From a plasmid, in NCBI RefSeq assembly GCF_054482525.1, contig NZ_JBTHVG010000003.1: DNA of 64,000 bases, one strand, 5' to 3'. Shown piece by piece: positions 5,072 to 26,459 of the stretch. Each line of letters starts with the position of its first letter. Position 1 is the stretch's first letter. The translations under genes and the position numbers were made by a program. Under the pieces are notes generated by a model. That model saw nothing but the letters and a program-made list of their open reading frames with translations. It searched no databases and was not told the DNA's origin.

Positions 5072-5075
5072 AGAA

Positions 5076-5097: not shown

Positions 5098-5099
5098 AA

Positions 5100-9203: not shown

Positions 9204-9260
9204 TCCTGTTAAGGGGGAACCCTAACGGGGCTTCTCTTTGAACAAATCGAGGAGCGGAAA

Positions 9261-9638
9261 ATGTCATATCTTGAATATATCAATGAAGTAAAAGTGTCCG
9301 GGATAGTTATCAGTGCTGTGGAGAAAAAAATGACTGACCAGAGTATAGGTTTGTTAATAAAGCTCAAAAATAGGATGAAGACAGAAGTTGATGGTGAAAT
9401 CACTGAGAGAGAATTTTCAGTTCAAATCAAGGTGTCGCCTGAAATGTATTCAACCTGTTTCACTGGTATAAATCAGGGTGATGAGTTGATGGTCTCCGGT
9501 TATATTGTTGTCGATACTATTATGATTGAAGGGAGAGAACATCCTCTTGACTACATGAGAGTGGTAGCAACAAGTAAGTTGGCTCACATACCTAAACCTC
9601 TAAAAGGTTTTGGACAAAGTAGCTTTAATCAGATCTGA
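9261..9638 (+). CDS. Hypothetical protein, possible OB-fold ssDNA-binding-like
   Basis: 125 aa with GAGGAG RBS; beta-rich pattern loosely resembling SSB/PriB. Weak assignment. Confidence 0.4.
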   Translation: MSYLEYINEVKVSGIVISAVEKKMTDQSIGLLIKLKNRMKTEVDGEITEREFSVQIKVSPEMYSTCFTGINQGDELMVSGYIVVDTIMIEGREHPLDYMRVVATSKLAHIPKPLKGFGQSSFNQI

Positions 9639-9658
9639 CATTAAACCCACCCTAAAGG

Positions 9659-9689
9659 GGAGAAATCCCTTCATGGGATTTCTCCTTTT
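9659..9689 (+). terminator. Intrinsic terminator-like hairpin
   Basis: GGAGAAATCCC-TTCAT-GGGATTTCTCC perfect 11-bp stem followed by TTTT; lies between ORFs 9261..9638 and 9699..10676. Confidence 0.6.
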
Positions 9690-9698
9690 GGAGTCCCC

Positions 9699-10676
9699 AT
9701 GAAACAAAAATTTAGGGCTACTGCAATAAGTAGTAATCAACTTAGTTTTTTTTCTATACTCGATATAGATGAAGATGAAATAACGCAAATAGTTGATTCA
9801 CCCAAAGAGCATTTAAATGATGCTTACACGTCCGGATTAAACTTTAAATCAGAAGAAAGTAACATTTCTGAGATAAATTATGATTCTGAAAGGCGTGAAA
9901 ATCACCTTTATGAAAAATCCAAATTACTTAAAAATCAGATTTTGCATACAATTAATTTTGCAGCAGAAACAGATTATCTATATACGGTTGAAGAATATAA
10001 CCCAGATTTGGGTGGTCTGGTAATAGAATGGACCCCTGAGGATGTGTATGTTGTTTTTCTATCCGCTATGGAAGAGTCTTTGGAAATCATTAAAGAACTA
10101 GTGTTGAGGAGAAAGTTATTCTTCAAAGATGACAATGGTAATATCACAGTGAATCCACTTTTAGAAGCTGAAACACGGTGGTATATGTCAAAATCATTTG
10201 AATACACTTGTTTATGTCATGGACTTGATGCATGTGAATTTAGAGCGGAATTAAAATCATGGCTCTATTATCATTCGCATCGTTCGATTAGTGAAAACAC
10301 GAAATTAGCTGAATGCAGGAATGATGATGAAATCATTTTGCATGATTGCAATGACGATATGGGCTGGGACATCTTCTTTGATCAGGATTATTTAATGTCA
10401 GAAAAAAAACTGGCTGTTAAATGGACTGACAGGGAAATTATGGATGTTTACATAAAAGCTTTTAAATCCACATTAGAGTTGTTTGACGAGCTTGTTTCAT
10501 GTGATCTGTTAACTAAACGAAACGCTTTTGGCAAGTTAGAAATCAATCCAATATTCGAAAATCATTTTGAATGGATCATGTCTGAAGCTTTTGAAATAGT
10601 GGGAAATCATCTTGGTTATAATGTGCCTCAAATCAGGAAACTGATGGCAACTATTTGCCAAATGAATCTCAAATAA
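9699..10676 (+). CDS. Hypothetical protein
   Basis: 325-aa ORF, GGAG RBS, no recognised motif. Confidence 0.5.
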   Translation: MKQKFRATAISSNQLSFFSILDIDEDEITQIVDSPKEHLNDAYTSGLNFKSEESNISEINYDSERRENHLYEKSKLLKNQILHTINFAAETDYLYTVEEYNPDLGGLVIEWTPEDVYVVFLSAMEESLEIIKELVLRRKLFFKDDNGNITVNPLLEAETRWYMSKSFEYTCLCHGLDACEFRAELKSWLYYHSHRSISENTKLAECRNDDEIILHDCNDDMGWDIFFDQDYLMSEKKLAVKWTDREIMDVYIKAFKSTLELFDELVSCDLLTKRNAFGKLEINPIFENHFEWIMSEAFEIVGNHLGYNVPQIRKLMATICQMNLK

Positions 10677-10733
10677 AATGCCACTGGCAAACATCTGCCA
10701 GAGGGCGGTGTTTGCATTTTACCGGAGTTAAAA

Positions 10734-11792
10734 ATGTCTAATGCCGCTATGAAGTTAAATGAAACATCTTCTGATGCTTATGAAAAATTAGAAGCTCTTC
10801 TTTCCCCGGATGTTATAAAGTTAAAACATTATGTGGATAAAGGTGAGTATCTTTTAGTTCTAGCAAAGGACCTTTTTGGTATTCCAGAAATGGATCCAAA
10901 GATGGCTGTGCCTGTTTTCAAAACTAAAACCTCGTATCGAGCTCCGCTGAACAAAGACTACATACCAAATCCCCGAATACTTGAACAAGTGGTTAAACTG
11001 CTTATCAGTCCGGATATAGATTTAAGTGTGTGTCTTAAAGGTGAGTCCGGTTCTGGCAAGACTGAAATGGTAATGTACATTAGCCACATGATGAATTGGC
11101 CGCTGACAATTAAGCAGATCAACAGCAATATTCGAGTTGATGAGCTTGAAGGTGAGCGCAGTCTTAATGGTGGTAATACAGGTTTTGTACACAGCGATTT
11201 GGTAACGGGATTTCGTAATGGTCACCTCATTCTTCTGGATGAAGTGGACAAAATCGATCCTGATACGGCAGCAAAACTTCACATGCCCATTGAACGTAAG
11301 CCCTGGTCACTCAGTGCTAATGGTGGTGAGGTTATAACTGCTAATGGCTACACGCGATTTATTGGTACTGCAAACACAAACATGAGTGGAGGCGCTCGCC
11401 GGTTCGTTTCTTCTCAACGTCAAGATGCAGCTTTTATAAAGCGGTTCTTGATAGTTGAAATGGAGAAGCCCGACAAAGTTGCTTTAACCAATGTGCTTAC
11501 TAAACGATATAGCTCTTTGCCTTTTCAGGTCATTGAGAAGTTCGTAAGAGTAGCGATTGCAGTAAATGACTCTGGTACAGAAGACAGTGTGATGGATATT
11601 CGTCAATTAGTAGCTTGGGTTGGCACGTCGATGACGTTAAAAACCTTTAGTCTTCTTGACACTTTCAAAATAGCTTTTGCTTCTGCTTTACCTTTACATG
11701 TGGTCGATCTTGTTCTTCAAGCTATAGATCTTTCTCTTGGCGAAGACAAGGATAAATCGCTGGAGTATTTCACAGCAAAAAAGTCGAGTTAG
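10734..11792 (+). CDS. AAA+ ATPase, CobS-like/MoxR-like
   Basis: Walker A GESGSGKTEM, Walker B LILLDEVDK, about 350 aa as in the CobS-like ATPases of conjugative elements and phages. Confidence 0.8.
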   Translation: MSNAAMKLNETSSDAYEKLEALLSPDVIKLKHYVDKGEYLLVLAKDLFGIPEMDPKMAVPVFKTKTSYRAPLNKDYIPNPRILEQVVKLLISPDIDLSVCLKGESGSGKTEMVMYISHMMNWPLTIKQINSNIRVDELEGERSLNGGNTGFVHSDLVTGFRNGHLILLDEVDKIDPDTAAKLHMPIERKPWSLSANGGEVITANGYTRFIGTANTNMSGGARRFVSSQRQDAAFIKRFLIVEMEKPDKVALTNVLTKRYSSLPFQVIEKFVRVAIAVNDSGTEDSVMDIRQLVAWVGTSMTLKTFSLLDTFKIAFASALPLHVVDLVLQAIDLSLGEDKDKSLEYFTAKKSS

Positions 11793-12109
11793 ATGGGATT
11801 TGTTATGAAACCTCTGATATTTGTATCTCAGAGTTATCCCATCTTGAATTTAGTGCGTTTTTAAGTACGGATGGTGCTGCTACCATTGCTATAGCAAAAA
11901 ACGGAACTAATTTTACTGGACTTATGCAACTGAATAACGACTATTCTTTATTGTTTTATCATGATGGTAAAATAAATATGGAAGGTCTGATTAAACAAAT
12001 GGAATTAAAAGGTTATATGTATCAGGGAGCAATGGGCAATGATGATGTTGTTGCTGAGTTTCCCGGTATTCTTTTAATTTCACCAGAGAAGCTTTAATAT
12101 CAACCCTAT

Positions 12110-12150
12110 CGGGAAATCTTTCCCGTTGGGGAGGGTTTCCCCTTTTTTTT
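12110..12150 (+). terminator. Tandem hairpins with T8 tract
   Basis: CGGGA-AATCTT-TCCCG then GGGG-AGGGTTT-CCCC followed by TTTTTTTT, immediately before the GGAG RBS of the next gene. Confidence 0.6.
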
Positions 12151-12160
12151 GGAGAAACCC

Positions 12161-13288
12161 ATGACTTTAAATACTTCAATGCTTAACAAAGTATCTGCAA
12201 AACAAATCTCTGAGAATTTTGCAAAATCATATCCAGATTTACTGGAAGGTGCAGTTATAACAAAAATTGAAATAAGTGGCTGTCAAGGATCGCGTCGAAC
12301 CGATAAAATCGATTTGTCTTATGATGGAGATGATATTACGGATCAAAAAAGCGTATCTAAAAGCGAAGTACGCTGGATTGACATAAAAGCCCTTAGCTTC
12401 AAAAGTACGATTACCAGCAGAATATCAACTCTTTGCTCACGCTTGTGCATCCGCTATAGCAATATGTGGATTTTACCAGTATCCAGTATGGAAGAGTTTC
12501 TGGAAGGGGCCCAAGAGATTGAACGAGAGTTTCAGGCAGGTATTCAAAACGTTGTAGACAATTATGAGATGCATATTGAGGCTGAAAAAAATAGAAGCCC
12601 AAGAATGTCTTCTTTGATTGATCAGTTGAAATTAACTAAAGATGATTTCATAAAATCCTTTAGATTTAATATTGCTCACTTTATTCCTTTTACGCCTATT
12701 AGCGTTGAAGGTGATGAAACCCAGGACTACTATCAGGAACAATTGATAACAGATCTGGCAGAAGAAGCAATGAAGGTTTATGAAAAAATTAGCAAAAATA
12801 ACAATTTGCGCTCAAGTACTATTGACCGACTGAAGCAAATGCAAAATAAGATCATTAGCTTCATGTTTATACATAAAGAGGCGGCAGTACTTGCAGAAGC
12901 TATAAAACACATAATGAATAATTTACCTAAAGGTGCCATTTCTGAACCTCGCGACGTTGCGGTGTTACAGCAGTGGTTTTATTTCATGAGTGATGCTTCA
13001 ATGTTAAAGCGTATTATTTCAGGAGAGCAAAAGGTTACTGACTGGTTGGAATCTATTACCAGATCATTTAATCAAAGCTCACAAACAGAACCGAACGCGC
13101 TACAGAACACAGGTATTGAAGCTATTTTAGATTCAACAAATGTGTTCCAGGTTGAACCTGTCGTAGAGAACGATATAAATAACAGCACGTTTTCAAACAC
13201 TGATCCTGTAGCTGAACCTGAGAAATCAGTTTCGCAACAGGAAGACAATGTTGAAAATGGTTTTGATATCGAGCTCAAAGGCTGGTAA
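12161..13288 (+). CDS. Hypothetical protein (between the AAA+ and vWA genes)
   Basis: Start moved to the ATG at 12161 with a GGAG RBS (the ORF-track TTG start at 12149 lies inside the terminator T-tract); no recognised motif. Confidence 0.5.
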   Translation: MTLNTSMLNKVSAKQISENFAKSYPDLLEGAVITKIEISGCQGSRRTDKIDLSYDGDDITDQKSVSKSEVRWIDIKALSFKSTITSRISTLCSRLCIRYSNMWILPVSSMEEFLEGAQEIEREFQAGIQNVVDNYEMHIEAEKNRSPRMSSLIDQLKLTKDDFIKSFRFNIAHFIPFTPISVEGDETQDYYQEQLITDLAEEAMKVYEKISKNNNLRSSTIDRLKQMQNKIISFMFIHKEAAVLAEAIKHIMNNLPKGAISEPRDVAVLQQWFYFMSDASMLKRIISGEQKVTDWLESITRSFNQSSQTEPNALQNTGIEAILDSTNVFQVEPVVENDINNSTFSNTDPVAEPEKSVSQQEDNVENGFDIELKGW

Positions 13289-13308
13289 CTGTTTGCTTTA
13301 TTAAAAAC

Positions 13309-13350
13309 CCCAGATGGGTACTTCACCATCTGGGTGAGTACCCCTTTTTT
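13309..13350 (+). terminator. Terminator-like element with two mutually exclusive stems
   Basis: CCCAGATGG / CCATCTGGG stem overlaps an alternative GGGTAC / GTACCC stem, followed by T6. Confidence 0.55.
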
Positions 13351-13365
13351 ATAAAGAGGTATTCT

Positions 13366-15378
13366 ATGAAATTAGATCTTAAATCATCACCGCGCCATAT
13401 TAAGCGTTTACAGAATATAGCAAAAGTCATTAGCGGCTTAGGCGATGTAAGAGTTGTAATAGACGACAATACCAAAGGACCGTATTTTGATCCTGTAAAT
13501 AAAGTTTGTGTTTTACCAAACGGCGATTATAGCGATGATGACTTTGTCAGTCTGATTGAAGGTTTTACCTGTCATGAAGCTGGTCATGGTCGCTATACCG
13601 ACAGCGAGGTTTACAGTGACGCCTTTAATAGTGTTCTCAAGTCATCTGAAGGGTTTACACGCTTCGATGACGGAATGAATGCAGAGTTTGAGAGCCTCGC
13701 TGAGAAACGTAAAGCTTATAGCAGGGCAAAACGTCTTACCGGGCTTATAAATCTGTTCGATGATGTACAGATGGAAGAGAAGGTTGGTAACGATTATCCG
13801 GATGCAAAGCGGCGGCTTGCAGCCACTTACGCACTGATGGTTAAAGCCGGAAGGATGACTCCTGATATATCTTCTCGTCCGGAAAATCCTGTCCTATTTA
13901 TTGAGTGGTATCTGCTTAACTCATTGCGAGTAAAAGTCCTTCAGCAGGCAGGTCACAAAGAAACACTCGATCCGTTTTTTGACTATGCCCAAAAGATACT
14001 TTCTCCAGTAATTTCTGATGTTGAGGAAATTTTTCATGATGCTCTTGGTTGTGAAAATACTCAGGGCTGTGAATCCCTTGCTCGTAAGACCCTGGCTCTT
14101 TTAGAGAGACTGCGGGATGAGGCAAGGGAACAACAGCAGCAGACAGAGCAGGAGGAGCAGGAGGCATATGATGAATCCGAGACCGATACCGATACCGATA
14201 CCGAATCAGAAGATAAATCGCTTGAGTCGACTGATAGTCGTGAGGATGATTCTGAGGACGATAGTGAAGGTCAGGCAGATACTTCCGATAACTCTGATCT
14301 TGCTCAAGAGGGATGTTCTGAGCCTTCAGAACTTGCTGAAGATAACGAGGGAAATAATGAACCCACCGGTGGCAATCCCACAGGTGATAACATTATTGAA
14401 GACGATACTGATGCGATTAACCCTTCCGAGAGTGAATCAGATGAAGCCAGTTCGACTAACGTTGAAGATGAAAGTAACTTTTCATCGGCTCAATGGGAGA
14501 TACTGGCAGATTTGTTGGATGCCTTTCTTGGCAGTGATGAGGATAGCGAAGATTATCACGATGCTTTGGCTAAAGAGATTGAAGGTATTGCATCAAAAGT
14601 ATCCGATGACGTGAAAGCCGAATTCGGTGCTTCTGAATGGGATATCCCTGATCTCCTTATCGATTTGAATGTTTACAATGAGGCTTTGTCTCTGAGTCAT
14701 TCAATCGGTAGCGACTTGTCTGTTTTACAGCAGGTTAAAATGCGTGGCCGAAACAAAACTCATGAGCGTGGAATTACCTTCGATGGAAATCGATTAATTC
14801 TGTCACCAATGGGAGTTCGTGATGTCTTCAGAGCTCAAAGCGAATCTAAAAATAGAGGGCATGTTGGCCTCGTATTAGTTCGTGATATTTCAGCGTCAAT
14901 GGCTAATGATGAAAGATATATTCATGCCATTAAGTCAGATCTTGCTTTATCGATGGCCGCTGAAAGTTTGTCAAAAATGCATGTCTCCAATATAGTCTTT
15001 CCCTTCAAGGAAAGTGAATTTGAGATTATCAAAACGTTTGATCAAAGCGTTGAGGAATCTCTATCGAAATTCACTCTTGGATGTAAGGGTTATTATACCC
15101 CTACGGGATCGGCTTTAATGGCAGCTGTTGATCTGTTACTTGACAGCCAATTCGATAGGAAAATAATTTTTCTTATAACTGATGGTTATCCGAATAAATC
15201 GGAATTTACTATCGGCGAAGTTATGGAAAAGGCTAAGTGTAATGGAATAGAAATCGTTGGTGTTGGTATTAAGACTGATGAAATAATTGGTTTTGAAACG
15301 GACACTTTCGTAACAGTTGATGATACTTCTTTATTGTCTATTGAAGTCAGTAAGCTAGTTCATCAAATACTTTCTTAA
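13366..15378 (+). CDS. von Willebrand factor A protein with acidic linker, CobT-like
   Basis: C-terminal vWA with MIDAS motif (LVLVRDISASM, later ITDG); long D/E/S/T-rich low-complexity middle region; AAGAGG RBS; downstream of the CobS-like ATPase. Confidence 0.75.
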   Translation: MKLDLKSSPRHIKRLQNIAKVISGLGDVRVVIDDNTKGPYFDPVNKVCVLPNGDYSDDDFVSLIEGFTCHEAGHGRYTDSEVYSDAFNSVLKSSEGFTRFDDGMNAEFESLAEKRKAYSRAKRLTGLINLFDDVQMEEKVGNDYPDAKRRLAATYALMVKAGRMTPDISSRPENPVLFIEWYLLNSLRVKVLQQAGHKETLDPFFDYAQKILSPVISDVEEIFHDALGCENTQGCESLARKTLALLERLRDEAREQQQQTEQEEQEAYDESETDTDTDTESEDKSLESTDSREDDSEDDSEGQADTSDNSDLAQEGCSEPSELAEDNEGNNEPTGGNPTGDNIIEDDTDAINPSESESDEASSTNVEDESNFSSAQWEILADLLDAFLGSDEDSEDYHDALAKEIEGIASKVSDDVKAEFGASEWDIPDLLIDLNVYNEALSLSHSIGSDLSVLQQVKMRGRNKTHERGITFDGNRLILSPMGVRDVFRAQSESKNRGHVGLVLVRDISASMANDERYIHAIKSDLALSMAAESLSKMHVSNIVFPFKESEFEIIKTFDQSVEESLSKFTLGCKGYYTPTGSALMAAVDLLLDSQFDRKIIFLITDGYPNKSEFTIGEVMEKAKCNGIEIVGVGIKTDEIIGFETDTFVTVDDTSLLSIEVSKLVHQILS

Positions 15379-15393
15379 TAAACTCTACCCAAT

Positions 15394-15422
15394 CGGGGCA
15401 AAAGGCCCCGGTGGGTCTTTTT
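15394..15422 (+). terminator. Terminator-like hairpin
   Basis: CGGGGC-AAAAG-GCCCCG stem, T5 tract a few nt downstream. Confidence 0.5.
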
Positions 15423-15449
15423 GCTCCATGAAGGAATAAGGAGCAAAAT

Positions 15450-15671
15450 ATGACTCAGATAAAAACTTACCGTGTAGAACATGAAAAAGTCGGTGCGATG
15501 CATAAAGTCCGTATTTTCGGACGTGTTGGTGAAGTTATAAGCAATGATAGCCCTCAGGAAAGAATCTTCCGCGAAGTCACTATAGCGGAGGGTAATAGCC
15601 AGCAGGCTGCGTTACTTGTAGATAACTACATACAGTGTCTTGAGAATAATGGCTTCACGACTGAAGCATAA
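15450..15671 (+). CDS. Small hypothetical protein (73 aa)
   Basis: TAAGGAG RBS 6 nt upstream of the ATG; bracketed by terminator hairpins. Confidence 0.45.
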   Translation: MTQIKTYRVEHEKVGAMHKVRIFGRVGEVISNDSPQERIFREVTIAEGNSQQAALLVDNYIQCLENNGFTTEA

Positions 15672-15676
15672 ATGTT

Positions 15677-15700
15677 GAGGGCCCCCGGGCCCTCTTTCTT
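15677..15700 (+). terminator. Terminator-like hairpin
   Basis: GAGGGCCC-CCG-GGCCCTC followed by a T-rich run. Confidence 0.55.
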
Positions 15701-15784
15701 AAATTCTGCGTTGTGGGTTTCTCCCTGTCTTCTGCACCGCAGAAGGCATTGAGAAACTCACAATGCCAGATAAGAGAGATCATC

Positions 15785-17017
15785 ATGACTTATGCATCCC
15801 CGGCTCTTCGTCGTAATCCACAGGAAGTATCTGAACACTTTATTAAACTCGTTCATGCTCGAATTGCTGAAGTGTCTGGCTGGAAGTATATATTCGAAAG
15901 AATACCTGCTTTCAAAGACGCTTGTGCAAAAGCCCCGAGCCAGGTTCCTTGCCCGTTTACTGGCGCAGGGAAATCGAAGTTTCGTTTCCGACAAAAAGAC
16001 CTTTATACCGGATGTGCGATCCATAATGACTTTCCGGTAAATGAGTTTTGCGACGGAATTGATGTTCTGGCGAAATATTATGAATTAAGTAAAACGCAGA
16101 CTTGCAAAAAGATTCTCTCAGATTTTTTCGGGATGGATCTGCATGCTCCGTTAACTGACGCCGACATTGAAAATGAACGACGCTATAAATCAGCAGTTCG
16201 TGCCACAGAAACTCTTGACCGAGAGGAAGTGGCAAAGCGAATGCGAAAACTTGATGTGATGTATCACTATACCGGTGAAATCAAGCCTAATACTCCTGTT
16301 GCTTTGTACCTCCGTAATCGTGGGATCTCCCGCTTACTGAGTCACTTACCAAAGGATTTAGGCTTTAATAACCGGATCTACTATTGGGATAAAGATAAGC
16401 AGAAATCGATTATCTATCCGGGAATGATTGCGATCTATCGTGACACCCGAGGTCGGCCTCTGACTATTCATAGAACATACGTAGACAAAAATGGTGATAA
16501 GGCACCTGTAGAAAATCCAAAGCTGATGATGAAGCCTCCTGCCGATATGACAGGTGGCTCAATTCAGTTGTTTGACCCTCACTATGATTCAGGTAGTTCG
16601 ACCTGGACACTGGGAGTGGCTGAAGGGATCGAGAACGCGCTTTCTGTTGTAGAAGCGACTTCAACACCATGCTGGGCAGCCAGCTCCGCATGGTGCCTTG
16701 AAAACGTTACTGTTCCTGATTTTTTACTGCCTCCGCCGGATGTAAAATCTATAAACTTTTATATCTGGGCGGATAAGGATATTGCTAACTCACAAGGCAC
16801 TCGTGCCGGTATTGAAGCTGCTCAGCGACTTCAAAGCCGCATGGTTGAGTTTTTGGCTAAACGATATCCCGCATCAAAGCTGACAATTGAAGTCTTCGAA
16901 CCAGCACAAGATATTCCTGATGGGAAAAAGGGTATCGACTGGAACGATGTTCTCCAGTTAACAGGGCAGGATGGATTCCCGATTCACTGGGCTCCTGAAT
17001 GTCTTAATCAGCTGTAA
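15785..17017 (+). CDS. DNA primase, CHC2 zinc finger + TOPRIM
   Basis: Zinc-finger-like CPFTGAGKSKFRF...C..H; TOPRIM-like GVAEGIENALS and YIWADKD; start moved to the ATG at 15785 (the ORF-track GTG at 15713 overlaps the upstream terminator). Confidence 0.7.
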   Translation: MTYASPALRRNPQEVSEHFIKLVHARIAEVSGWKYIFERIPAFKDACAKAPSQVPCPFTGAGKSKFRFRQKDLYTGCAIHNDFPVNEFCDGIDVLAKYYELSKTQTCKKILSDFFGMDLHAPLTDADIENERRYKSAVRATETLDREEVAKRMRKLDVMYHYTGEIKPNTPVALYLRNRGISRLLSHLPKDLGFNNRIYYWDKDKQKSIIYPGMIAIYRDTRGRPLTIHRTYVDKNGDKAPVENPKLMMKPPADMTGGSIQLFDPHYDSGSSTWTLGVAEGIENALSVVEATSTPCWAASSAWCLENVTVPDFLLPPPDVKSINFYIWADKDIANSQGTRAGIEAAQRLQSRMVEFLAKRYPASKLTIEVFEPAQDIPDGKKGIDWNDVLQLTGQDGFPIHWAPECLNQL

Positions 17018-17028
17018 CAACGATAACT

Positions 17029-17060
17029 CCCCCGCTTTTTGCGGGGGGGGTTATCTTATC
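17029..17060 (+). terminator. Rho-independent terminator after primase
   Basis: CCCCCGC-TTTTT-GCGGGGG stem (G8 run) followed by a T-rich stretch. Confidence 0.6.
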
Positions 17061-17287
17061 AATATTATATTTTAAAATTGTATTGATAAGATAACCGCTT
17101 TCCTTCGTGATAATTACCTGCCTTTAAGGTCTTTTCACGGCTGAGATGCTTGCTCAGTTAAATAAATGTGCGGTACTACTGGCTATGGTCGGTTGTATGA
17201 CATGGTTATTCCATAAACTATTAAAACCCATAACGGGAGTATTACCGTTATGGTGATGCTCGTCGTTTTACATCGGAGAGCATTTTA

Positions 17288-17809
17288 ATGAATTTTCAAA
17301 TTAACGAAGTTTTTAATAAATTTGCTGCTGTTATAAAATCGCGCATCGTCAATGAACCATCGTCATGCTATTTGCTGCATGATAATGAGATAGATATAAC
17401 GATTTTGAAACATAGCATATTAGAAAATGACAGAAACCTGTTGTACGTAGTTCGTCCTTCAGGAACGTGTTTGTTGCGTTGTGACAAATATTTCTATCCG
17501 AAATATTATCTTCGTTGCCGTGGAGATTATAAGTCATTCATATATGTCCATCTTGATCTACATAGTGGTGAAGCTAAAGAAATCACATGGGAGCAAGCAG
17601 ACGATATGCTGTCTAGTCCAGGAAAACCCCCATTAAAAGGGAATCTTGGACGATTTGAGTATATAAAAGTTGTGGTTGAGGACCTTCGTATTCGAGGTTA
17701 CGCTGATTATCTTCCTGCGTATAATCTTGATGACCTTCGCCGTTTTGCCTTACAGGACGACCGCCCATCCCTTGTCAGATACATTGACAATGTCATGGCA
17801 ACGGTCTGA
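17288..17809 (+). CDS. Hypothetical protein
   Basis: 173-aa ORF, AT-rich, no recognised motif. Confidence 0.45.
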   Translation: MNFQINEVFNKFAAVIKSRIVNEPSSCYLLHDNEIDITILKHSILENDRNLLYVVRPSGTCLLRCDKYFYPKYYLRCRGDYKSFIYVHLDLHSGEAKEITWEQADDMLSSPGKPPLKGNLGRFEYIKVVVEDLRIRGYADYLPAYNLDDLRRFALQDDRPSLVRYIDNVMATV

Positions 17810-17887
17810 TTGATTGCTAATTGATTTACATATTTTCCCTGATGGCCAACCTGCATCAGGGAGGCCTCAATAACGAATGGAGGCTGT

Positions 17888-18766
17888 ATGAAGTTAGCTA
17901 CGGACCTGGTAAAAGCTATTTTGATTAGAAATGGCGTTGAACCAGTAAATATAAGCGAATCATCTAAGTTATCTTTGAAACAACCACTGACAGAACTTAA
18001 ATTCAGTTTATATTTGCGAACTGAGCATTTATCTCACTTCCTACCCGGTTATGTTTATTCTATAAAAGAATGTCCACTGTCATATGACATCGGGATCGAA
18101 ATTCAGAAAATCTTCGAAAGTTTACATTTGTTAAACGAAGAATTTGAATCCCTCGGTTTTGTTTCTGTATGGATAGAAATGCATCAAAGCATTTTTGAAC
18201 AAAGTCGGTTTAAGAAAAGTAACTTTACTTTTCGGGAGGAAGAGGTCGAGCTTGCTAAAGGGCTTGTTTGTTCTCACAATTCACAAATAAGTAATGCGGC
18301 TTATTTCTGGCTTCAGCACTTTGAGGAGTTTATGATTTATGTTCGTAATAAGCTTATCGACCTCTTTCGAGAGGCCTATGACCTGATCCTTGGAATGCAG
18401 CAAGTATTTTTCATTCGGGAAAAGGAAGAGCTGTTGAAAACTATAAGTTATGGCGATGAGCTGTATGAGGTGAAATTCATGGCGGCTGAGCTTTACTCTA
18501 TCGAACAGAACTTAAAGTGTTCTGAATCGATAAGTACAAAATCTCAAGCTTCGGCATATATTAACCGCATCCGTGAGTTTGTGCGTTCGGGGTGGAGGCA
18601 GGGCTATATAGTCTGCCATCATAAGCGAAGTAATCAAATTTCATCATTGTCATTACCGATGTACTTGAAAGATACGTCAGGCCGAAGTGCTCGAAAGCGA
18701 GTAAAACGTCTTATATCTTCTACAGTTTGTGGTAGAAATAAAGATTTAGGTCTTACAGATTTTTAA
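17888..18766 (+). CDS. Hypothetical protein, first of a run of about 300-aa ORFs
   Basis: 292 aa, GGAGG RBS, preceded by the hairpin CCCTGATG...CATCAGGG at 17837-17861. Confidence 0.5.
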   Translation: MKLATDLVKAILIRNGVEPVNISESSKLSLKQPLTELKFSLYLRTEHLSHFLPGYVYSIKECPLSYDIGIEIQKIFESLHLLNEEFESLGFVSVWIEMHQSIFEQSRFKKSNFTFREEEVELAKGLVCSHNSQISNAAYFWLQHFEEFMIYVRNKLIDLFREAYDLILGMQQVFFIREKEELLKTISYGDELYEVKFMAAELYSIEQNLKCSESISTKSQASAYINRIREFVRSGWRQGYIVCHHKRSNQISSLSLPMYLKDTSGRSARKRVKRLISSTVCGRNKDLGLTDF

Positions 18767-18784
18767 TTAAATTATACCCATGTG

Positions 18785-18820
18785 GGGATCACACCCCATA
18801 TGGGAGTGATCCCTTTTTTT
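18785..18820 (+). terminator. Terminator hairpin with T7
   Basis: GGGATCAC...GTGATCCC stem (loop ACCCCATATGGGA) followed by TTTTTTT. Confidence 0.6.
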
Positions 18821-18836
18821 ATTGAGAGAGGATCAC

Positions 18837-19772
18837 ATGAAAATTATCGAAAAAATCATTAATGCCTTTTTGGTTGTTCAACATAAAAAAATACAGGTTA
18901 AAAACATTACATTTTTAGACAATGGGCAGGGCATGTTCTCTGGTATGTCTTTTGATGCTGATGTTTCACTGGAGTTTATGTATGAATCAGCAAAAGCATA
19001 TAGTTCTTGTTTCTGTGATATTCCCTTTCCAGGTTTTGAAGATGCAAATCTGGAGGAAATTACGAAATTTCAATTAGATGCTTTGAAGCAAAGAAAGAAT
19101 CATTCTTTCTTTGTTAACCATTTGAGGTTTCCTATAGTTTTAAGGGAAGGGTGCAAAATCGAAAGAGGAGAAGTCTATTCAATTTCGAATTGCACTTATA
19201 ATAAAGAAAGATTGCAGTATCTTTTTTCTCAGGATATTTACGGTAAGTTGTATAATTCCTTAGAGAAAGAATTAAGCTCGTTTTTCTCATTTATCAATGT
19301 TGAGGTGCACGAGTTGTTAAAAGATGCTGTATGCTTTGCATTAAAAATCCTGAATAAGATATCTTTGGATACACCTGAAAGACTTATTAAAGCTTTTAAT
19401 TATCGTGACTGGTATTGTAGTTACGATGTTGAGCTTTTTAGGAAAGGCTTACCTGGTCATATTCTGGAAGAGCTCATTGCTCCAGATATCTTACTTTCAG
19501 ACCTTAACGGTTGTAGAAAAATACTTAGAAATGCAAAACGATTTCTAAATGGACATACACAAACCAATTGTGTTTATATTAAATATGAATGGTGGTTGGG
19601 GCCTGTTGATACCTCACACTCAGCTAAGTTGATGTCTGACAAAGAAATTAATAACCGAAGTGACTTGAAGAATTTTTCAAAGGTCTTTTTCAAAGAGTGT
19701 TTAAGTTCTGGTAAGTCGGAATATGAAAACCATCTTAGTGAAAAAGAACATGCGCTTCGCTATAATTATTAA
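18837..19772 (+). CDS. Hypothetical protein
   Basis: Start moved to the ATG at 18837 with an AGAGAGG RBS; about 311 aa. Confidence 0.5.
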   Translation: MKIIEKIINAFLVVQHKKIQVKNITFLDNGQGMFSGMSFDADVSLEFMYESAKAYSSCFCDIPFPGFEDANLEEITKFQLDALKQRKNHSFFVNHLRFPIVLREGCKIERGEVYSISNCTYNKERLQYLFSQDIYGKLYNSLEKELSSFFSFINVEVHELLKDAVCFALKILNKISLDTPERLIKAFNYRDWYCSYDVELFRKGLPGHILEELIAPDILLSDLNGCRKILRNAKRFLNGHTQTNCVYIKYEWWLGPVDTSHSAKLMSDKEINNRSDLKNFSKVFFKECLSSGKSEYENHLSEKEHALRYNY

Positions 19773-19840
19773 TTAAAATTATTTTCTCCCATAGGGATTT
19801 CTCCCTATGGGAGAAATCCCTCTATTAAGAGGGTATTGAA

Positions 19841-20761
19841 ATGAATGCTATACAAAAGTTAGTTGAATCTATTCTTGTTAAAATGGGTTTTGTTGGCGCT
19901 GTAGTGGAAAATATATATTTGGATTCAAAACCATTTCGGCATATTCGATTTGTGGCTGATATTCCAGTAATATCTTTTCTACCTCATTTGGTGAAATATC
20001 TTAAGGGTGCAGACCATCTTTACAGTGGTAACGATGATTTGCATCCTCTTTTCATTTATTTTTCCGAAGCGGCTACATTAAAAGCAGGTCCTGTAAATCT
20101 CGCGAACTTTCGTTTTGAAGTTTCTATAGCTTCAACTCATTTACGACTGGTCTCAGAGCAGCCTGATTTGCTTTTCAAAGGATTTAACCGGGATAATCTA
20201 GAATACGTTTATTACCGCTCAGATTTGGCCTCTAAGGATCTTATACTAGGCCTTGTTGAACACGGTTCTCCTTTCATAAAACATCTACATGGACTTATAC
20301 AAAAGCGAATTTTAAACGAGTTCTCTCTGATTTTTTCTGTTCTTGAAAAGATTTTAGAAAGCGCGAAGCCACAAATTCTTGCTTGCTTCCATAGTGTTGA
20401 TTATGAAATGAACGTAAAAATAATAGCCGAAGCTATACCTGAAACTGTATCTAATCAGATAGTCACATCTGATTATATAGTTAATTCTATATCAGATGCG
20501 GACAAGTTTATAAATCATGTTCGTCGCTATTTAGCAGGCAGGGTAATGAAGAGGCGGATATACGCTGAATTAGATGTTTGTGAAGAAACATCAAGTATTT
20601 CACTAGTGAACTTAGGATGCTTTACGTCTCCTCTGCTCGTTACGGAATATCAAATGTTTAAGCCACACTCTTCAGGGTTATATCGAAAAGCTATAAACAA
20701 CTCCTTAAAACAGTTCAAACCAGAAATGCATGTACCTTCTGAAGAACTCTTTTATAATTAA
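19841..20761 (+). CDS. Hypothetical protein
   Basis: 306 aa; preceded by the composite palindrome at 19783-19820. Confidence 0.5.
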   Translation: MNAIQKLVESILVKMGFVGAVVENIYLDSKPFRHIRFVADIPVISFLPHLVKYLKGADHLYSGNDDLHPLFIYFSEAATLKAGPVNLANFRFEVSIASTHLRLVSEQPDLLFKGFNRDNLEYVYYRSDLASKDLILGLVEHGSPFIKHLHGLIQKRILNEFSLIFSVLEKILESAKPQILACFHSVDYEMNVKIIAEAIPETVSNQIVTSDYIVNSISDADKFINHVRRYLAGRVMKRRIYAELDVCEETSSISLVNLGCFTSPLLVTEYQMFKPHSSGLYRKAINNSLKQFKPEMHVPSEELFYN

Positions 20762-20827
20762 TCTAACCCATCCGGGAACCTGCTTCCCGGTGGGAAGCAC
20801 TTCCTTTTTAGTCATGAGGTAGTGTAA

Positions 20828-21766
20828 ATGTTTAAAGAATCTGACCACGTGGAATTTGTTAGTGCCTTTCTTTATCAAAATTTAGGCCTTAATGTTTCCG
20901 CTGACGATATAACCGTTCAATTATCTGATACTTCGTTCGACAAAGTAACCTTTGATTACGATGTAGATATCGATAATTTAAATTGTATGTTGGATCTCTA
21001 CATATCTGAGCTAATAAAGCACAACGCATCTTACTCCGATTCTATTCTTTTGAAACAAAAAATAATTTATTTTCTTGGAGTATTTAAGAATTTCGGATTT
21101 TTTACGTTTGATATTCGCGGATATAGTAATACTTTAAGCCCAGTTAAAGTTATTGATATTGTTTCAATGATTATTAATGACTGTGAAGAGTTATCTAAAG
21201 CTAATTCTTCTACTGATGCTATAAGAAATCTTTATCTCGATAAAATGAAGGTGGATGGGAAAGTGTTAGTTGCGAAATTTGCACTTAAACAGTTTTTTCA
21301 TTCCGACTTTGGTGACTTTATCTCATTTGTCGAGAAAAGAATTACAGATTGTCTTAATGAAACTTTAAGGATTATCAAAGCTGTTGAACATGGCTTTGTA
21401 CGTGTAGGGCAGCATAAGATTAATCGCCGTATTAATGATGACTTAAAGTTATGCATTGATTTCAATACTGATGATTATCCGGCAAATATGCCAGATATAT
21501 ATATTAAGTTTAACGATACATTTGATGGGAACGGGGCGTTATATTGTGACAATGATGCCCTCATATCCCTCTATACCGATGTTGCTTCAATTATCAATGT
21601 GCCGGTGATGATGGAAGTAAGATTGATCAATAAAAGAGGGCGTGTTGTCTGTGATTCTTCGCATTCAACTTACGTATCTCTCGAAAGTAATGACCGATAC
21701 AGAGTAACTGATCGCACATTACTAATAACTGAAGCTTTTGACGATTTTCGTAACGCGTCTCAATGA
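20828..21766 (+). CDS. Hypothetical protein, tandem paralog A
   Basis: 312 aa; shares blocks with the next ORF (VDGKVLVAKFALKQF vs VDGQVMIARFALQQF; C-terminal ...VCDSSHSTYVSLESNDRYRVTDR vs ...VTDLCHTVYVSELTGGRIKIHDR); its upstream leader is also duplicated. Confidence 0.55.
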   Translation: MFKESDHVEFVSAFLYQNLGLNVSADDITVQLSDTSFDKVTFDYDVDIDNLNCMLDLYISELIKHNASYSDSILLKQKIIYFLGVFKNFGFFTFDIRGYSNTLSPVKVIDIVSMIINDCEELSKANSSTDAIRNLYLDKMKVDGKVLVAKFALKQFFHSDFGDFISFVEKRITDCLNETLRIIKAVEHGFVRVGQHKINRRINDDLKLCIDFNTDDYPANMPDIYIKFNDTFDGNGALYCDNDALISLYTDVASIINVPVMMEVRLINKRGRVVCDSSHSTYVSLESNDRYRVTDRTLLITEAFDDFRNASQ

Positions 21767-21937
21767 TCCTTTTGCTTCAGTCCAAAAAAGTAACTTTGGT
21801 TGGCTGAAGACACTTGTCTATGACAATGTAAAATCTGTCGCTGGCATCTTCTTTTAGCTTAACCAAATTTTTATCTAACCCAGTGGGGAAGTCGCTTCCC
21901 TTCTGGGGCACTTCCTCTCAAATTCGAGGTAGTGTAT

Positions 21938-22894
21938 ATGACACATTCATCTGATGATAAAAACTATGTCCGAGCAGTTCTGAGTTATCTTGGCATAGAT
22001 TTTGATGAGGCGGATATAGTATTAAGTGTTTGCCATTGTCAAAGTGACGAGCTTTCTTTTACCTGTAATATCAAAGCTATTGAACTCAAGAATGTTGTTG
22101 ATTTATATGTCGATAGTATCTCTGAGAATGAAATAGAAGCTTTAAACAGAGAATCTTTAAAATCGCGACTCTGTTACTTTCTTGAGGTGTTTGACGCAGT
22201 CTCTGGTCAGTACCTTGAAATTTCAGGAAAACACTTTGCAACTAGTCGTTTTGAATATGATGATGTTTGTAGTGAAGTTCTTAGCATGTCTAATGATGTT
22301 TCTCAGTCGAAAGGTTATGACCGGGATGAATATAACAGACTGATGCAGGTTGATGGTCAGGTTATGATTGCCCGTTTTGCTTTGCAACAGTTCTGGGATA
22401 CTCATTTTATTGGACTAATAACATTTGTATCTGAGTCTATAACATCGAGCCTCTATAAAGCTTATGAAACTTTTAGTGATATTAGTTTGGCTTGCTATAA
22501 ACTGAGTGAATATTCTTATTCACGCTCTATCAACAGTGAATTGACCCTTAATATTTCACTTAAAGAAAATGACTTCTGTGAGGACCTATCTGATTGCTAT
22601 ATGGAAGATGAGGCTTTACCTTCTGGTAGGGTAATTTCTCGACGCAACAATGACTCCATAATAAGTATTTATGAGAGCTATGCTGCGGCTTCTTATATTC
22701 CGATGATTGCATCTTTGGAAGTCGTTGATGAATACGGCGAAGTGGTTACTGACCTCTGCCATACCGTTTATGTTTCAGAGTTAACCGGTGGGCGGATTAA
22801 AATCCACGACCGTAATGACTTAGTATCTGAAGTTTTCGATAACCTAAGAAATTTAAATCTTGCAGTTGGAGATTCAGTTTCACAAGCTGCTTGA
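21938..22894 (+). CDS. Hypothetical protein, tandem paralog B
   Basis: Start moved to the ATG at 21938 so that the leader GAGGTAGTGTATATG matches paralog A's GAGGTAGTGTAAATG; about 318 aa. Confidence 0.55.
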   Translation: MTHSSDDKNYVRAVLSYLGIDFDEADIVLSVCHCQSDELSFTCNIKAIELKNVVDLYVDSISENEIEALNRESLKSRLCYFLEVFDAVSGQYLEISGKHFATSRFEYDDVCSEVLSMSNDVSQSKGYDRDEYNRLMQVDGQVMIARFALQQFWDTHFIGLITFVSESITSSLYKAYETFSDISLACYKLSEYSYSRSINSELTLNISLKENDFCEDLSDCYMEDEALPSGRVISRRNNDSIISIYESYAAASYIPMIASLEVVDEYGEVVTDLCHTVYVSELTGGRIKIHDRNDLVSEVFDNLRNLNLAVGDSVSQAA

Positions 22895-22933
22895 TTCTTT
22901 CCCTGATTTTGATTTTTTCTCACATACTCTTAT

Positions 22934-22958
22934 GGCACGGTTTCCGTGCCTTTTTTTT
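22934..22958 (+). terminator. Rho-independent terminator closing the paralog block
   Basis: GGCACGG-TTT-CCGTGCC followed by T8. Confidence 0.7.
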
Positions 22959-23157
22959 GCCTCGCTTACAAGCGTCTACTCCTCTTCTACCTATCCCACC
23001 TTACATCACCACTTAAAATCTATCTTTCTAATTCCATTATCCTTTTCGTAGCCTCTAATGCTCTGGTATGAACATACTCTTTAAACTCAAAAAAGTGCTA
23101 TTAACGAAAAAAAATCCCTAAAGAGATTTGTATACTGTTCTCAACCAAGGAGAGCTC

Positions 23158-23433
23158 ATGAATGAACTAAAATCCAAAAACGAGAACAGTACCAAAAGCA
23201 ACTTTCCCCCGGTTGATAATCAGTTTTGCTTTTACCATGTTGATTTCAGCATAGAACGACTACTTTCTACGGCCGAGGATCTCCAGCTTGAGTACATCTT
23301 CCAGAAACCTGGAAGTGAAGTAAGAAAGGATTTGGTTGAGCGATTCGAACGTGGAGAGCGCTTTGTTACAGCTTCACACTGTGACAATTTCTGTGAAATC
23401 CTTGGTTGTCAAGGCCATCAGGAAAATGCATAA
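23158..23433 (+). CDS. Small hypothetical protein
   Basis: AAGGAG RBS upstream of the ATG at 23158 (the ORF track starts at 23128). Confidence 0.4.
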   Translation: MNELKSKNENSTKSNFPPVDNQFCFYHVDFSIERLLSTAEDLQLEYIFQKPGSEVRKDLVERFERGERFVTASHCDNFCEILGCQGHQENA

Positions 23434-23477
23434 ACCCATAAACCTACATTTCCACTTTTAAGGATGTTCACTAAAGA

Positions 23478-24068
23478 ATGATTGGAGAAAGTATTTTTGA
23501 CTGGGTAATTTACGGAATATCCATTTTGATATTTGCCTCAGCACTAATTGAAGGAAAGACAACTCGCTACCCAGCACTTTTTTTCTATGGGAGTTTAATT
23601 TTAATGTTAATCCTGATAGTTGCTGGAGGCCTTAACTGGTGGTTCTACAGGTCAAAATATGGCGCAGTAATCGTTATCTTCACAGTGGTTTCTTTACTGA
23701 TGACTCGATTCCGCCTGGTCATATATAAATTAAGATTAAGAAAGTTAGTTTCAGAGATCAGATTTCGTATAAAAACGGGTTTTCGTATAATTCTTGTTTT
23801 GTCGGATAATGAGGATGAGCGTAATGTTCTGCTGTCTATGCTTAGCAACGTATTGCCAGAGCAAACGCTTATTCACACGCGTGATGCTCTCGGACCTCAT
23901 TCAGGGCCTATCCTAAAAGCTCTTGAGCTACATCATCAACAGGGAACAGGTTACATACTCGTCTGTGAACAACAAATCTCAGCGCGTACGTGGTTGAGTA
24001 TCGTAGAAAATGGGAAACCTGATACATCTATAGCTGTTAATTTTCATTCGATCCCAGAAATGGAGTGA
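23478..24068 (+). CDS. Membrane protein, unknown function
   Basis: Three predicted TM helices in the N-terminal half followed by a soluble domain. Confidence 0.5.
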   Translation: MIGESIFDWVIYGISILIFASALIEGKTTRYPALFFYGSLILMLILIVAGGLNWWFYRSKYGAVIVIFTVVSLLMTRFRLVIYKLRLRKLVSEIRFRIKTGFRIILVLSDNEDERNVLLSMLSNVLPEQTLIHTRDALGPHSGPILKALELHHQQGTGYILVCEQQISARTWLSIVENGKPDTSIAVNFHSIPEME

Positions 24069-25478: not shown

Positions 25479-26459
25479 ATGAGCCTGGAGAAACGTATGA
25501 GTTATGACGATTTGCCCTATTTTCGTGACCAGATTCTGGAACGTATCGACTCGCTTAAGTGTTTTCTTTCGAACACCCCCCCGCTGATGGCAAACCTGAT
25601 GACTGTCTCCACCGTATCTCGAACAGAAGAGCGACTGAAGCAGGTTAAACCCATCAGGGTTAGTGTTAAAGACGATGCTTCGGTTGAGGAAATTATTCAG
25701 GCACTTACTGACATCTGTGTGGATGACATAGAGTCATTAAGTCATGATTCCACCAAAGTGACCACTAAATACCCGGGTCTTATCATTGTCCCAGAAAGAG
25801 CAGATCTTCTCGAAAGCTTGATCACATCTATAAATGAAGCAAAAAATGATTTTGCTGCGGCAATGAGGCGTATCGATAATAAAAAGAATGTCCGTTTTGA
25901 TAAAGTGCACAAGAAGCTCCCGGGCCTTGTCGCTATGCACTCAACAAGAAATGTCCTTTTCATCAAGTCCCAGCTTAAAAAAGTTACTTTTTCATGGCGG
26001 CTAAACCGAAACCAGGAAGTTAAAACAGCAGAGCAACTTGTGAGTTTGTTGGAGCGCAGGAGAGCCTCAGAAGTAAAAAATGTAGCAACTACCAATTTGA
26101 ATGTCGTGTCTAATATCGATAAGGCTTTACACCGTCTTGAATTTCACCCACTGAAGCAGGGCGAATCTTATCGCCTTTGTCGAACTAACTCTTTCCCTGT
26201 TCCGATTGCTCACATTTTTGCATTTAGGCCTGAAGGCCAGGAACGAAACGGGAATAAATATGCTGAGACTGATTATTCAGTAGTAAAAGCATCCTTGCCC
26301 ATTTTCGCAGCAGGCAACATACCTCAATTAAAAACGCTCTCTGACTGGGCTCCTGAAAACAGCCAGGGCCCGTCCAACCAACGGAAGCTGAGCCTGAAAT
26401 ATACAGAACTCGTGCCGGGGGCTGAGCTGGGCATTTTCATTGTCAGCCCCGAAAATTAA
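25479..26459 (+). CDS. Tus-like (replication terminus-binding protein-like)
   Basis: Block FDKVHKKLPGLVAMHSTRNVLFI...FSWRLNR resembles the Tus block [23 protein letters not shown]...FGWANKH as I recall it; size about 320 aa. The real start may be the ATG at 25497 (GGAG RBS). Confidence 0.4.
   Translation: MSLEKRMSYDDLPYFRDQILERIDSLKCFLSNTPPLMANLMTVSTVSRTEERLKQVKPIRVSVKDDASVEEIIQALTDICVDDIESLSHDSTKVTTKYPGLIIVPERADLLESLITSINEAKNDFAAAMRRIDNKKNVRFDKVHKKLPGLVAMHSTRNVLFIKSQLKKVTFSWRLNRNQEVKTAEQLVSLLERRRASEVKNVATTNLNVVSNIDKALHRLEFHPLKQGESYRLCRTNSFPVPIAHIFAFRPEGQERNGNKYAETDYSVVKASLPIFAAGNIPQLKTLSDWAPENSQGPSNQRKLSLKYTELVPGAELGIFIVSPEN

Follow-up and report, generated by a model that had tools for sequence, protein, structure and literature searches.

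A paralogous gene array with repeated, predicted two-hairpin leaders in the backbone of IncHI plasmids

The locus and its protein superfamily

The stretch of DNA analysed (the window, 64,000 nucleotides of contig NZ_JBTHVG010000003.1, assembly GCF_054482525.1) carries an array of five consecutive plus-strand open reading frames (ORFs) of 292, 311, 306, 312 and 318 amino acids (aa), designated O1 to O5, which follow a shorter ORF, O0, of 173 aa. The five proteins were found to be related to one another, and a conserved two-hairpin leader was predicted in front of their genes. The ORFs originally predicted were exact, and they agree with the PGAP gene calls in identical plasmids. A 6.5-kb query (positions 17000-23500) matched 1189 plasmids of PLSDB, 1114 of them at ≥99% identity. 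The matched plasmids were mostly conjugative, with sizes of 200-370 kb, from Escherichia, Salmonella, Enterobacter and Klebsiella, and they were typed as IncHI2A / MOBH / MPF_F. By these sequence matches the window is IncHI2 plasmid backbone, and the array sits within that backbone.

The array forms part of a long run of genes on one strand. The run comprises trhI, genes for proteins of 290, 125 and 325 aa, an AAA ATPase (AAA_5), a small ORF, a DUF3150 gene, a VWA gene, a 73-aa ORF and a toprim/DUF7146 primase-like gene; it continues with O0, O1-O5, several small ORFs, a Tus-like gene, an integrase gene and hha. The O0-O5 segment looks like a transcription unit of its own, since predicted intrinsic terminators lie on both sides of it and the 270-nt spacer before O0 holds a conserved block. 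This 68-nt block is kept in 8/8 of the lineages compared and is conserved above the flanking ORFs. It is a candidate for a TrhR/TrhY-dependent promoter/operator, or for a 5' untranslated region or small RNA (sRNA) element of the unit. The coordinates of all features are collected in Table 1.

Ortholog sets were assembled from eight lineages: IncHI2 (the window), IncHI1 (L002), an IncHI1B-type plasmid (L003) and the IncHI-like contigs L004, L008, L009, L013 and L015. At the level of BLAST the proteins form three families, A (O1), B (O2 and O3) and C (O4 and O5). The last two ORFs had been taken for diverged paralogs, and full-length alignment bore this out (27% identity over 309 aa, E 3e-36; HHalign 99.9%). 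Comparison of all against all went beyond that claim, since O1-O3 also proved to be paralogs of O4 and O5. In HHalign, the two B profiles matched each other with 98.4% (E 1e-14, 242 columns), A matched B with 96.9% (E 1.4e-10, 226 columns) and C with 89.1% (E 2.3e-6, 221 columns), and the direct match between B and C, weak if taken alone, reached 43% (E 2.4e-4, 245 columns). All of these alignments were collinear from the N-terminus. The control, O0 against any family, gave E values of 0.16-0.63 and was not collinear.

Structure prediction with AlphaFold2 (AF2) gave models of good quality scores for O5 (pLDDT 88.5, pTM 0.82) and O1 (pLDDT 84.2, pTM 0.76). Their secondary-structure elements occur in identical order: an N-terminal alpha-beta-beta-alpha-alpha-beta domain, two short helices, a central helix of ~45 residues and a beta-rich C-terminal domain ending in a helix. 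When the O1 model was compared by Foldseek with the AlphaFold database (AFDB), it retrieved the C-family protein A0A381KN38 (TM score 0.62, E 5e-7) and the IncHI1B ortholog of O4. It is strongly supported, by the collinear profile matches (control E > 0.1), the matching AF2 architecture and the matches of the O1 model to family C, that O1-O5 constitute one very diverged superfamily, so far met on mobile elements only.

The absence of a recognisable domain, as originally predicted, held in the library searches. Pfam had no match for any of the 41 family members, no significant family was found in NCBIfam, PHROG or PADLOC for the array proteins, and no sequence relative of the family members was found in the PDB; one weak N-terminal match was obtained in PHROG (phrog_10163, E 0.005). 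According to the models and the fold search with O1 and O5, the common architecture matches no known fold. An exhaustive hidden Markov model search with the C profile returned 41 matches in 1.84 billion representatives, ~11 of them full length, and the search with the A and B profiles found nothing beyond IncHI plasmids. Structural neighbours of ~300 aa in AFDB (TM score 0.6-0.68, 11-14% identity) came from Dickeya, Brenneria, Serratia, Photorhabdus, Pectobacterium and Salmonella, and included one entry labelled "phage protein"; A0A5B8HP55, A0A421DJK9, A0AAJ1YHK3 and A0A6G8F409 are among the entries concerned. One neighbour bears the label "NgrC", for which the relevant literature was not found.

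A Gram-positive LPXTG adhesin of 2078 aa (P0045) gave nine weak repeat matches to positions 196-293 of the C profile, with a summed E of 1.5e-7. This was judged to be noise summed over repeats, and the candidate was rejected; the match, though probably noise, could reflect a common beta-rich domain.

The array proteins appear to be cytoplasmic, as neither a transmembrane segment nor a signal peptide was detected. O5 is very acidic in all eight lineages (net charge -21 to -33, pI 4.3-4.5). From charge, O5 is the only member for which a highly acidic surface, like that of DNA mimics, is indicated.

Table 1. Features of the array, its leaders and the neighbouring DNA, with positions in the window
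Feature	Coordinates	Strand	Basis and remarks
O0 (173 aa), opens the unit; every lineage has it; no paralog of O1-O5	17288..17809	+	HHalign E > 0.1 against families A, B and C
O1 (292 aa), family A; R27 R0202	17888..18766	+	ORF, profile comparison, AF2 model
O2 (311 aa), family B; R27 R0201	18837..19772	+	ORF, profile comparison
O3 (306 aa), family B; R27 R0200	19841..20761	+	ORF, profile comparison
O4 (312 aa), family C; fastest-evolving member; R27 R0199	20828..21766	+	ORF, alignment, dN/dS
O5 (318 aa), family C; very acidic; R27 R0198, split by IS2	21938..22894	+	ORF, AF2 model, charge
O0 leader (predicted)	17228..17287	+	HP1 17228-17253, HP2 pairs the SD; folds; model R2 matches orthologous leaders in L013 and L015
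O1 leader (predicted)	17837..17887	+	HP1 17837-17861; HP2 17862-17885 pairs GGAGG; fold z -1.79 (weaker)
O2 leader (predicted)	18776..18839	+	Fold z -6.45; covariance model 36.2 bits; compensatory changes against IncHI1
O3 leader (predicted)	19786..19843	+	Fold z -5.78; covariance-model match
O4 leader (predicted)	20766..20830	+	Fold z -4.23; covariance model 50.2 bits
O5 leader (predicted)	21878..21940	+	Fold z -5.55; covariance model 59.4 bits
Leader of the 325-aa gene (start 9699; predicted)	9649..9701	+	Covariance model E 0.049; fold
Leader of the DUF3150 gene (start 12161; predicted)	12103..12163	+	Covariance model 54.9 bits (above the 50.2 of the O4 leader)
Leader of the VWA gene (start 13366; predicted)	13308..13368	+	Covariance model 26.3 bits; fold
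Intrinsic terminator after the toprim/DUF7146 primase-like gene; upstream unit boundary (predicted)	17027..17049	+	Terminator scan; kept in 8/8 lineages
Non-coding block with hairpin CTGAG-N7-CTCAG	17138..17205	+	Alignment of eight lineages
Strong intrinsic terminator, GGCACGG-TTT-CCGTGCC + T8; downstream unit boundary (predicted)	22934..22950	+	Terminator scan
Upstream genes, 290-aa through toprim/DUF7146 primase-like	8331-17017		Orthologs of R27 R0002 to R0204
Long hairpin before the toprim/DUF7146 gene (predicted)	15675-15784		~-43 to -46 kcal/mol
Large palindrome directly after the upstream terminator	17049-17096		23-nt arms
Tus-like replication terminus-binding gene	25479-26459		PF05472

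A two-hairpin leader in front of the cistrons

The predicted leaders follow one design. A GC-rich, stable hairpin (HP1) is followed, after a gap of 0-2 nt, by a second hairpin (HP2) in which an anti-SD arm (UUCC) pairs with the Shine-Dalgarno (SD) region, and HP2 ends 0-7 nt before the AUG. The consensus of HP1 is ACCC-N4-GGGAA...UUCCC-N4-GGG, and that of the full module is ACCC-a-N3-GGGaa-loop-ucCC-N4-GGG-n-g-N3-uuCC-U-rich loop-gaGGaa-N5-u-AUG. In HP1 the outer CCC/GGG and the inner GGGAA/UUCCC blocks are conserved in sequence and the four pairs between them show free covariation; an SD-like/anti-SD-like duplex makes up the inner stem.

The leaders of O4 and O5 had been described as homologous on the basis of a common motif. 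The motif is present, the two leaders have in common a block of 31 nt (77% identity) and one of 15 nt (93%), and they score E values of 6e-10 and 3e-12 with a covariance model, far beyond chance. The spacer upstream of the O5 leader (21767-21877) is extra sequence. The covariance model was seeded by hand on four O5 leaders and rebuilt from its 21 best plus-strand matches by Infernal realignment. It replaced an alignment of 15 leaders by sequence alone (MAFFT with RNAalifold), which had recovered HP1 only and misaligned HP2.

The covariance model gave 57 matches in the eight loci; those on the plus strand all end at start codons of the operon. Nothing was found elsewhere in the window or in a further 140 kb of plasmid R478, covering Tra2, the par loci, the resistance islands and most of Tra1. 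No Rfam family matches the leaders, and no thermometer or other cis-regulatory family was obtained at E ≤ 1. By folding, the same design was also recognised before the upstream genes starting at 9261, 9699, 12161, 13366 and 15450, and it was absent before the genes ahead of 9261 and after O5. The module is repeated before at least nine cistrons of one operon of ~13 kb.

Several observations argue that the predicted pairing is maintained. The leader is retained in the eight lineages with compensatory changes, for example from GUGAUCC/GGAUCAC to GUAAUCC/GGAUUAC. In the model-based alignment, whose fitting to the structure inflates pairing, 89.7% of the cells were paired as compared with 71.6% after shuffling, and 17 of the 20 pairs had changed on both sides. 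Compensatory cells numbered 213 against 65 +/- 7 in shuffles, and the covariation score was 0.41 against ≤ 0.11 for slid registers. The module appears to act as sense-strand RNA, because G-U pairs are frequent and the minus strand scores much more weakly (21 bits, vs 59 for the plus strand).

The mean minimum free energy (MFE) of the 5' regions was -30.0 kcal/mol, compared with -15.1 kcal/mol for 79 control genes of the same plasmid (p 2e-8). In 35/41 leaders of the array unit, at least four of the five bases of the SD core were paired in the MFE fold. The mean predicted stability was -10.2 kcal/mol for HP2 (range -7 to -17) and -17.4 kcal/mol for HP1. The distance from the upstream stop codon to HP1 varied from 2 to 152 nt.

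Individual leaders showed features of their own. In the O2 leader and its orthologs (L002, L003 and L015), the HP1 loop contains a second SD-region sequence (GGAUCAC or GGAUUAC), with which the anti-SD arm is able to pair. The alternative hairpin formed in this way, followed by a U-run, resembles a terminator, and the copy covaries with the real SD arm among the lineages, which suggests, for this leader only, a possible conformational switch. In IncHI2 the leaders of O4 and O5 both contain GAGGTAGTGTA (20816-20830 and 21926-21940) with the same U-U mismatch in HP2, and in IncHI1 both contain GAGGAAGTGAA. The two leaders, 1.1 kb from each other, share these lineage-specific states, which points to gene conversion or to selection acting in parallel. 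Before the toprim/DUF7146 gene a different, long hairpin, GUUGUGGGUUUCUC...GAGAAACUCACAAU with an inner GCAGAAGGC stem, stands in place of the two-hairpin module; it is kept in IncHI1.

Further observations concern the surroundings of the unit. A large palindrome with arms GGTTATCTTATCAATATTATATT / AAAATTGTATTGATAAGATAACC was found in IncHI2 and is not kept in the other lineages. In all IncHI-like lineages examined, the Tus-like gene is conserved on the downstream side of the array, ahead of a tyrosine recombinase gene; hha comes next where the locus extends that far, which is not the case in L003.

Regulation and evolution of the array

Expression data are available for R27, the prototype of IncHI1. 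By gene order, R0203 corresponds to O0, R0202-R0199 to O1-O4 and R0198 to the N-terminal part of O5. In microarrays, R0198-R0203 were near-silent in the wild type, with 27-129 units at 25°C and 9-61 at 37°C (PMC7366339). In an htdA mutant at 25°C they reached 2740-6669 units, 38-116-fold up, as transfer genes do, and no derepression was seen at 37°C (PMC7366339). The array belongs to the TrhR/TrhY-HtdA conjugation regulon in R27, and presumably does so in IncHI2.

Immediately upstream in the same-strand run lies the R27 nine-gene cluster R0204 to R0002, which is of unknown function and is induced 5-23-fold at 25°C (PMC7366339). It is co-regulated with the array, and several of its genes have the same type of leader. 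The published cluster stops at the toprim gene, however; R0198-R0203 were scored there as not expressed in the wild type, and neither their paralogy nor their leaders were described.

The order of the five genes is common to IncHI2, IncHI1 and IncHI1B, with gene lengths that are equal or differ by one codon (O4: 312 vs 311 aa). Because order and lengths are common to all three, the duplications that gave rise to the five genes predate the split of these plasmids. The survey of copy number showed the composition A-B2-B3-C4-C5 in IncHI2, IncHI1, IncHI1B and L015, A-B3-C4-C5 in L009 and L013, B2-B3-C-C in L008 and A-C in L004, so that distant IncHI-like elements have two, four or five members. 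O5 is the sole member of the three families kept in 8/8 lineages, and O0 is likewise found in every lineage.

The amino acid identity between IncHI2 and IncHI1 was 51, 52, 53, 48 and 64% for O1 to O5, respectively. It was 57-87% for most neighbours and went down to 46% for other genes of unknown function. The ratio of nonsynonymous to synonymous substitution (dN/dS, omega) between IncHI1 and IncHI1B was 0.14-0.25 for the array, 0.04-0.26 for most neighbours and 0.81 for the short ORF hyp73. These ratios were taken from orthologs and not from paralogs, since at 27% aa identity the synonymous sites are saturated. By sequence comparison, the array genes are under purifying selection and evolve moderately faster than the rest of the operon.

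Natural plasmids carry insertion sequences (IS) in the array: IS903B in O3, IS21 and IS3 in O4 and IS1 in the O4-O5 spacer. In R27 (L017, NC_002305.1; 8238-10530) the O5 ortholog is split by IS2. Single members are dispensable for plasmid persistence, as the natural insertions in O3, O4 and O5 indicate. R27 is transfer-proficient, and since its O5 is split, O5 is not needed for R27 transfer. Studies based on R27 have thus been made with a plasmid without intact O5.

The leaders of C4 and C5 are mutually the closest pair in IncHI2, IncHI1 and L015, with 68-72% identity in the structure-based alignment against 31-57% between other leaders of the operon, and the two C leaders of L008 pair likewise. 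They are far better conserved than the O4 and O5 proteins (27%). This supports, at the level of sequence, co-duplication of gene and leader for the C pair. The duplication of a gene-plus-leader unit followed by divergence, as originally proposed, fits the observation that O4 and O5 are paralogous and that their leaders are the closest to each other in each lineage having both. The leader as a mark of the duplicated pair was sustained only in that respect: the motif also stands before all of O0-O5 and before unrelated upstream genes.

Interpretation and significance

Taken as a whole, it is probable that the locus is an accessory unit of the conjugation regulon that arose by serial duplication of gene plus leader and whose translation is restrained by occlusion of the ribosome-binding sites. 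The array would have grown by serial tandem duplication, gene and leader together, after which the lineages lost or kept different members. Transcription of the unit would be under the TrhR/TrhY-HtdA regulon, and HP2 would keep the ribosome-binding site of each cistron closed. The predicted structures suggest that HP2 limits translation. Protein output may then need both transcriptional derepression and the opening of the hairpin by some factor or process; alternatively, translation may simply be held low, independently of the neighbouring cistrons. Unfolding by a ribosome terminating on the upstream cistron was considered as a general mechanism and judged unlikely, given the distances of 2 to 152 nt between stop codon and HP1. 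As to the role of O1-O5, an accessory, transfer-associated function directed at host or recipient appears most likely, with low confidence.

Some points weigh against this interpretation. The leader motif also precedes non-paralogous genes (DUF3150, VWA), so likeness of leaders alone is no proof of co-duplication. The leader structures are predicted ones, and the main effect of the hairpins could be on the stability or processing of the mRNA. The alignment behind the covariation was fitted to the structure; the slid-register control shares that bias, however, and together with the shuffles it argues against an artefact. The families B and C are joined only with family A as a bridge. The expression data stem from microarrays of IncHI1 R27 and not from the IncHI2 plasmid of the window. 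In R478 mobI and the MobH relaxase gene lie at ~191-195 kb and the array at ~48-53 kb; the unit is thus ~135 kb from oriT and is no classical leading-region gene set. Finally, the role proposed for the O1-O5 proteins is purely conjectural.

An explanation compatible with translational control is that the modules are mainly elements of mRNA processing or stability, blocking exonucleases or serving as RNase III/RNase E sites, with the pairing of the SD being secondary. It would account for modules in nearly every spacer of the 13-kb operon, for the high stability and sequence conservation of HP1 and for the AU-rich single-stranded stretches ahead of it, and processing and partial termination in tra operons are noted in the published R27 study. 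It would not account for the position of HP2, which is set with respect to the start codon and in every case includes the SD. The arms of HP2 covary with the lineage-specific sequence from SD to AUG, as is expected for translation control and not for a generic stabiliser, and a canonical RNase III substrate would be longer than either hairpin. This explanation is regarded as less likely than control of translation, but as a serious rival.

Phage T7 early mRNA offers a parallel. Its intercistronic RNase III hairpins are repeated, related elements between the cistrons of a long early transcript, and they can influence the stability and translation of the flanking genes. In IncHI, too, related hairpins are repeated between the cistrons of a mobile-element transcript. 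In contrast to T7, two short adjacent hairpins take the place of one long irregular stem, and HP2 is anchored to the SD and AUG.

The array had originally been taken as typical of a fast-evolving conflict or immunity family. The paralogs of such a family would diversify in an arms race, for instance as anti-restriction or anti-defence proteins that the recipient makes or receives during transfer. Part of this stands, on circumstantial grounds: the restriction to mobile elements, the turnover of members (2, 4 or 5 copies), the position of the array at the divergent end of the operon (48-64% vs 57-87% for most neighbours), the co-expression with transfer genes in R27 and the acidity of O5 in all lineages, like that of DNA-mimic anti-restriction proteins. 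The fast evolution is not supported, given the ancient gene order, the omega values, lengths that differ by one codon (O4) across IncHI1, IncHI1B and IncHI2, and a near-invariant array in 1114 IncHI2 plasmids. The location outside the leading region and the lack of a match in PADLOC or other libraries also speak against such a family, which is considered unlikely.

Leading regions of conjugative plasmids carry anti-defence islands with ArdA, KlcA, PsiB and similar proteins. The array resembles these islands in being uncharacterised, plasmid-borne, variably present and transfer-linked, with an acidic O5 like DNA mimics, and differs from them in its distance from oriT/mobI (R478) and in its donor-side TrhR/TrhY-HtdA control. 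Library and fold searches brought up no known anti-defence protein as a homolog or fold relative of the array proteins, and neither sequence nor fold similarity to ArdA or Ocr was observed. The arrangement of a polymorphic toxin-immunity array, in which small cognate immunity genes accompany a neighbouring toxin gene or domain, was not found.

A more elaborate version of the favoured scheme can be drawn. HP1 and HP2 would be the RNA operator of a dedicated trans-acting factor (an RNA-binding protein or sRNA of the operon, or a host helicase or RNase) and so a second, post-transcriptional lock. O1-O5 would then be transfer effectors of a new fold, countering defence or manipulating the host, for instance, and the acidic O5 might mimic nucleic acid, either within the donor or after export into the recipient. 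This version is quite unlikely as it stands.

It is improbable that the modules are attenuators or partial terminators, or else DNA palindromes for binding of a plasmid protein or for recombination, with no part in translation. The alternative hairpin of the O2 leader, GGGAUCAC...GUGAUCCC followed by U7, is terminator-like and is kept in IncHI1, IncHI1B and L015 with covarying bases, a terminator-like site formed by an alternative hairpin was flagged inside the O4 leader, and HP1 is a near-palindrome with conserved CCC/GGG blocks. Such alternative hairpins are not general, however: the O4 site was the only one flagged, the leaders otherwise not showing the GC stem-loop plus U-tract of a rho-independent terminator. 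Most HP1 stems have no U-tract behind them and lead straight into the HP2 arm. The frequent G-U pairs and the strand difference in score point to sense RNA, the free covariation of the four middle base pairs of HP1 is unlike a sequence-specific DNA operator, and the derepressed signals of R0198-R0203 are of similar magnitude, so that polarity is not strong.

A contribution of the leaders, as RNA thermometers, to the temperature sensitivity of IncHI conjugation is highly improbable: transfer is indeed thermoregulated (PMC7366339) and the leaders share with fourU and ROSE elements an SD paired in a hairpin with a U-rich segment opposite or adjacent, often in the loop, but this likeness to fourU is superficial, HP2 is too stable (-7 to -17 kcal/mol), by prediction the leaders do not open between 25 and 42°C (in silico partition function; probability of an unpaired SD core 0.14 at 25, 37 and 42°C), no Rfam thermometer family matches, and a thermometer would open at high temperature, opposite to an operon transcribed at low temperature.

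Repression of translation by occlusion of the ribosome-binding site is the reading preferred here, and it has precedents in SD-sequestering translational operators such as the coat/replicase sites of RNA phages and in structure-dependent coupling (PMC12548453). There, likewise, a hairpin pairs the SD of the downstream cistron and initiation needs its unfolding. The IncHI locus differs from these operators in that one sequence-conserved module of two hairpins is repeated before at least nine cistrons and is kept across eight lineages. It differs from translational coupling in the variable distance between the stop codon and HP1, which makes unfolding by the terminating ribosome unlikely.

Tandem arrays of paralogs and leader hairpins that occlude the SD are kinds already known, and it is the protein superfamily and the operon-specific RNA motif that appear to be undescribed. 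No prior description was found in the literature on DUF3150 in conjugative elements, on IncHI mutagenesis and on intercistronic hairpins of plasmids.

Plasmids of the groups IncHI1 and IncHI2 play a major part in carrying resistance (multidrug, mcr-1/mcr-9, metal) in Salmonella, E. coli and Enterobacter, and most of their backbone genes are without known function. The present analysis delimits what looks like a six-gene transcription unit within the conjugation regulon, recognises five of its genes as one new superfamily and identifies a strongly covarying cis-RNA module throughout a 13-kb operon. Mutations in the leaders and deletions of the array provide handles on the post-transcriptional control of transfer-associated genes. 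If the proteins should turn out to be establishment or anti-defence factors, they would help to explain the host range and the success of IncHI plasmids.

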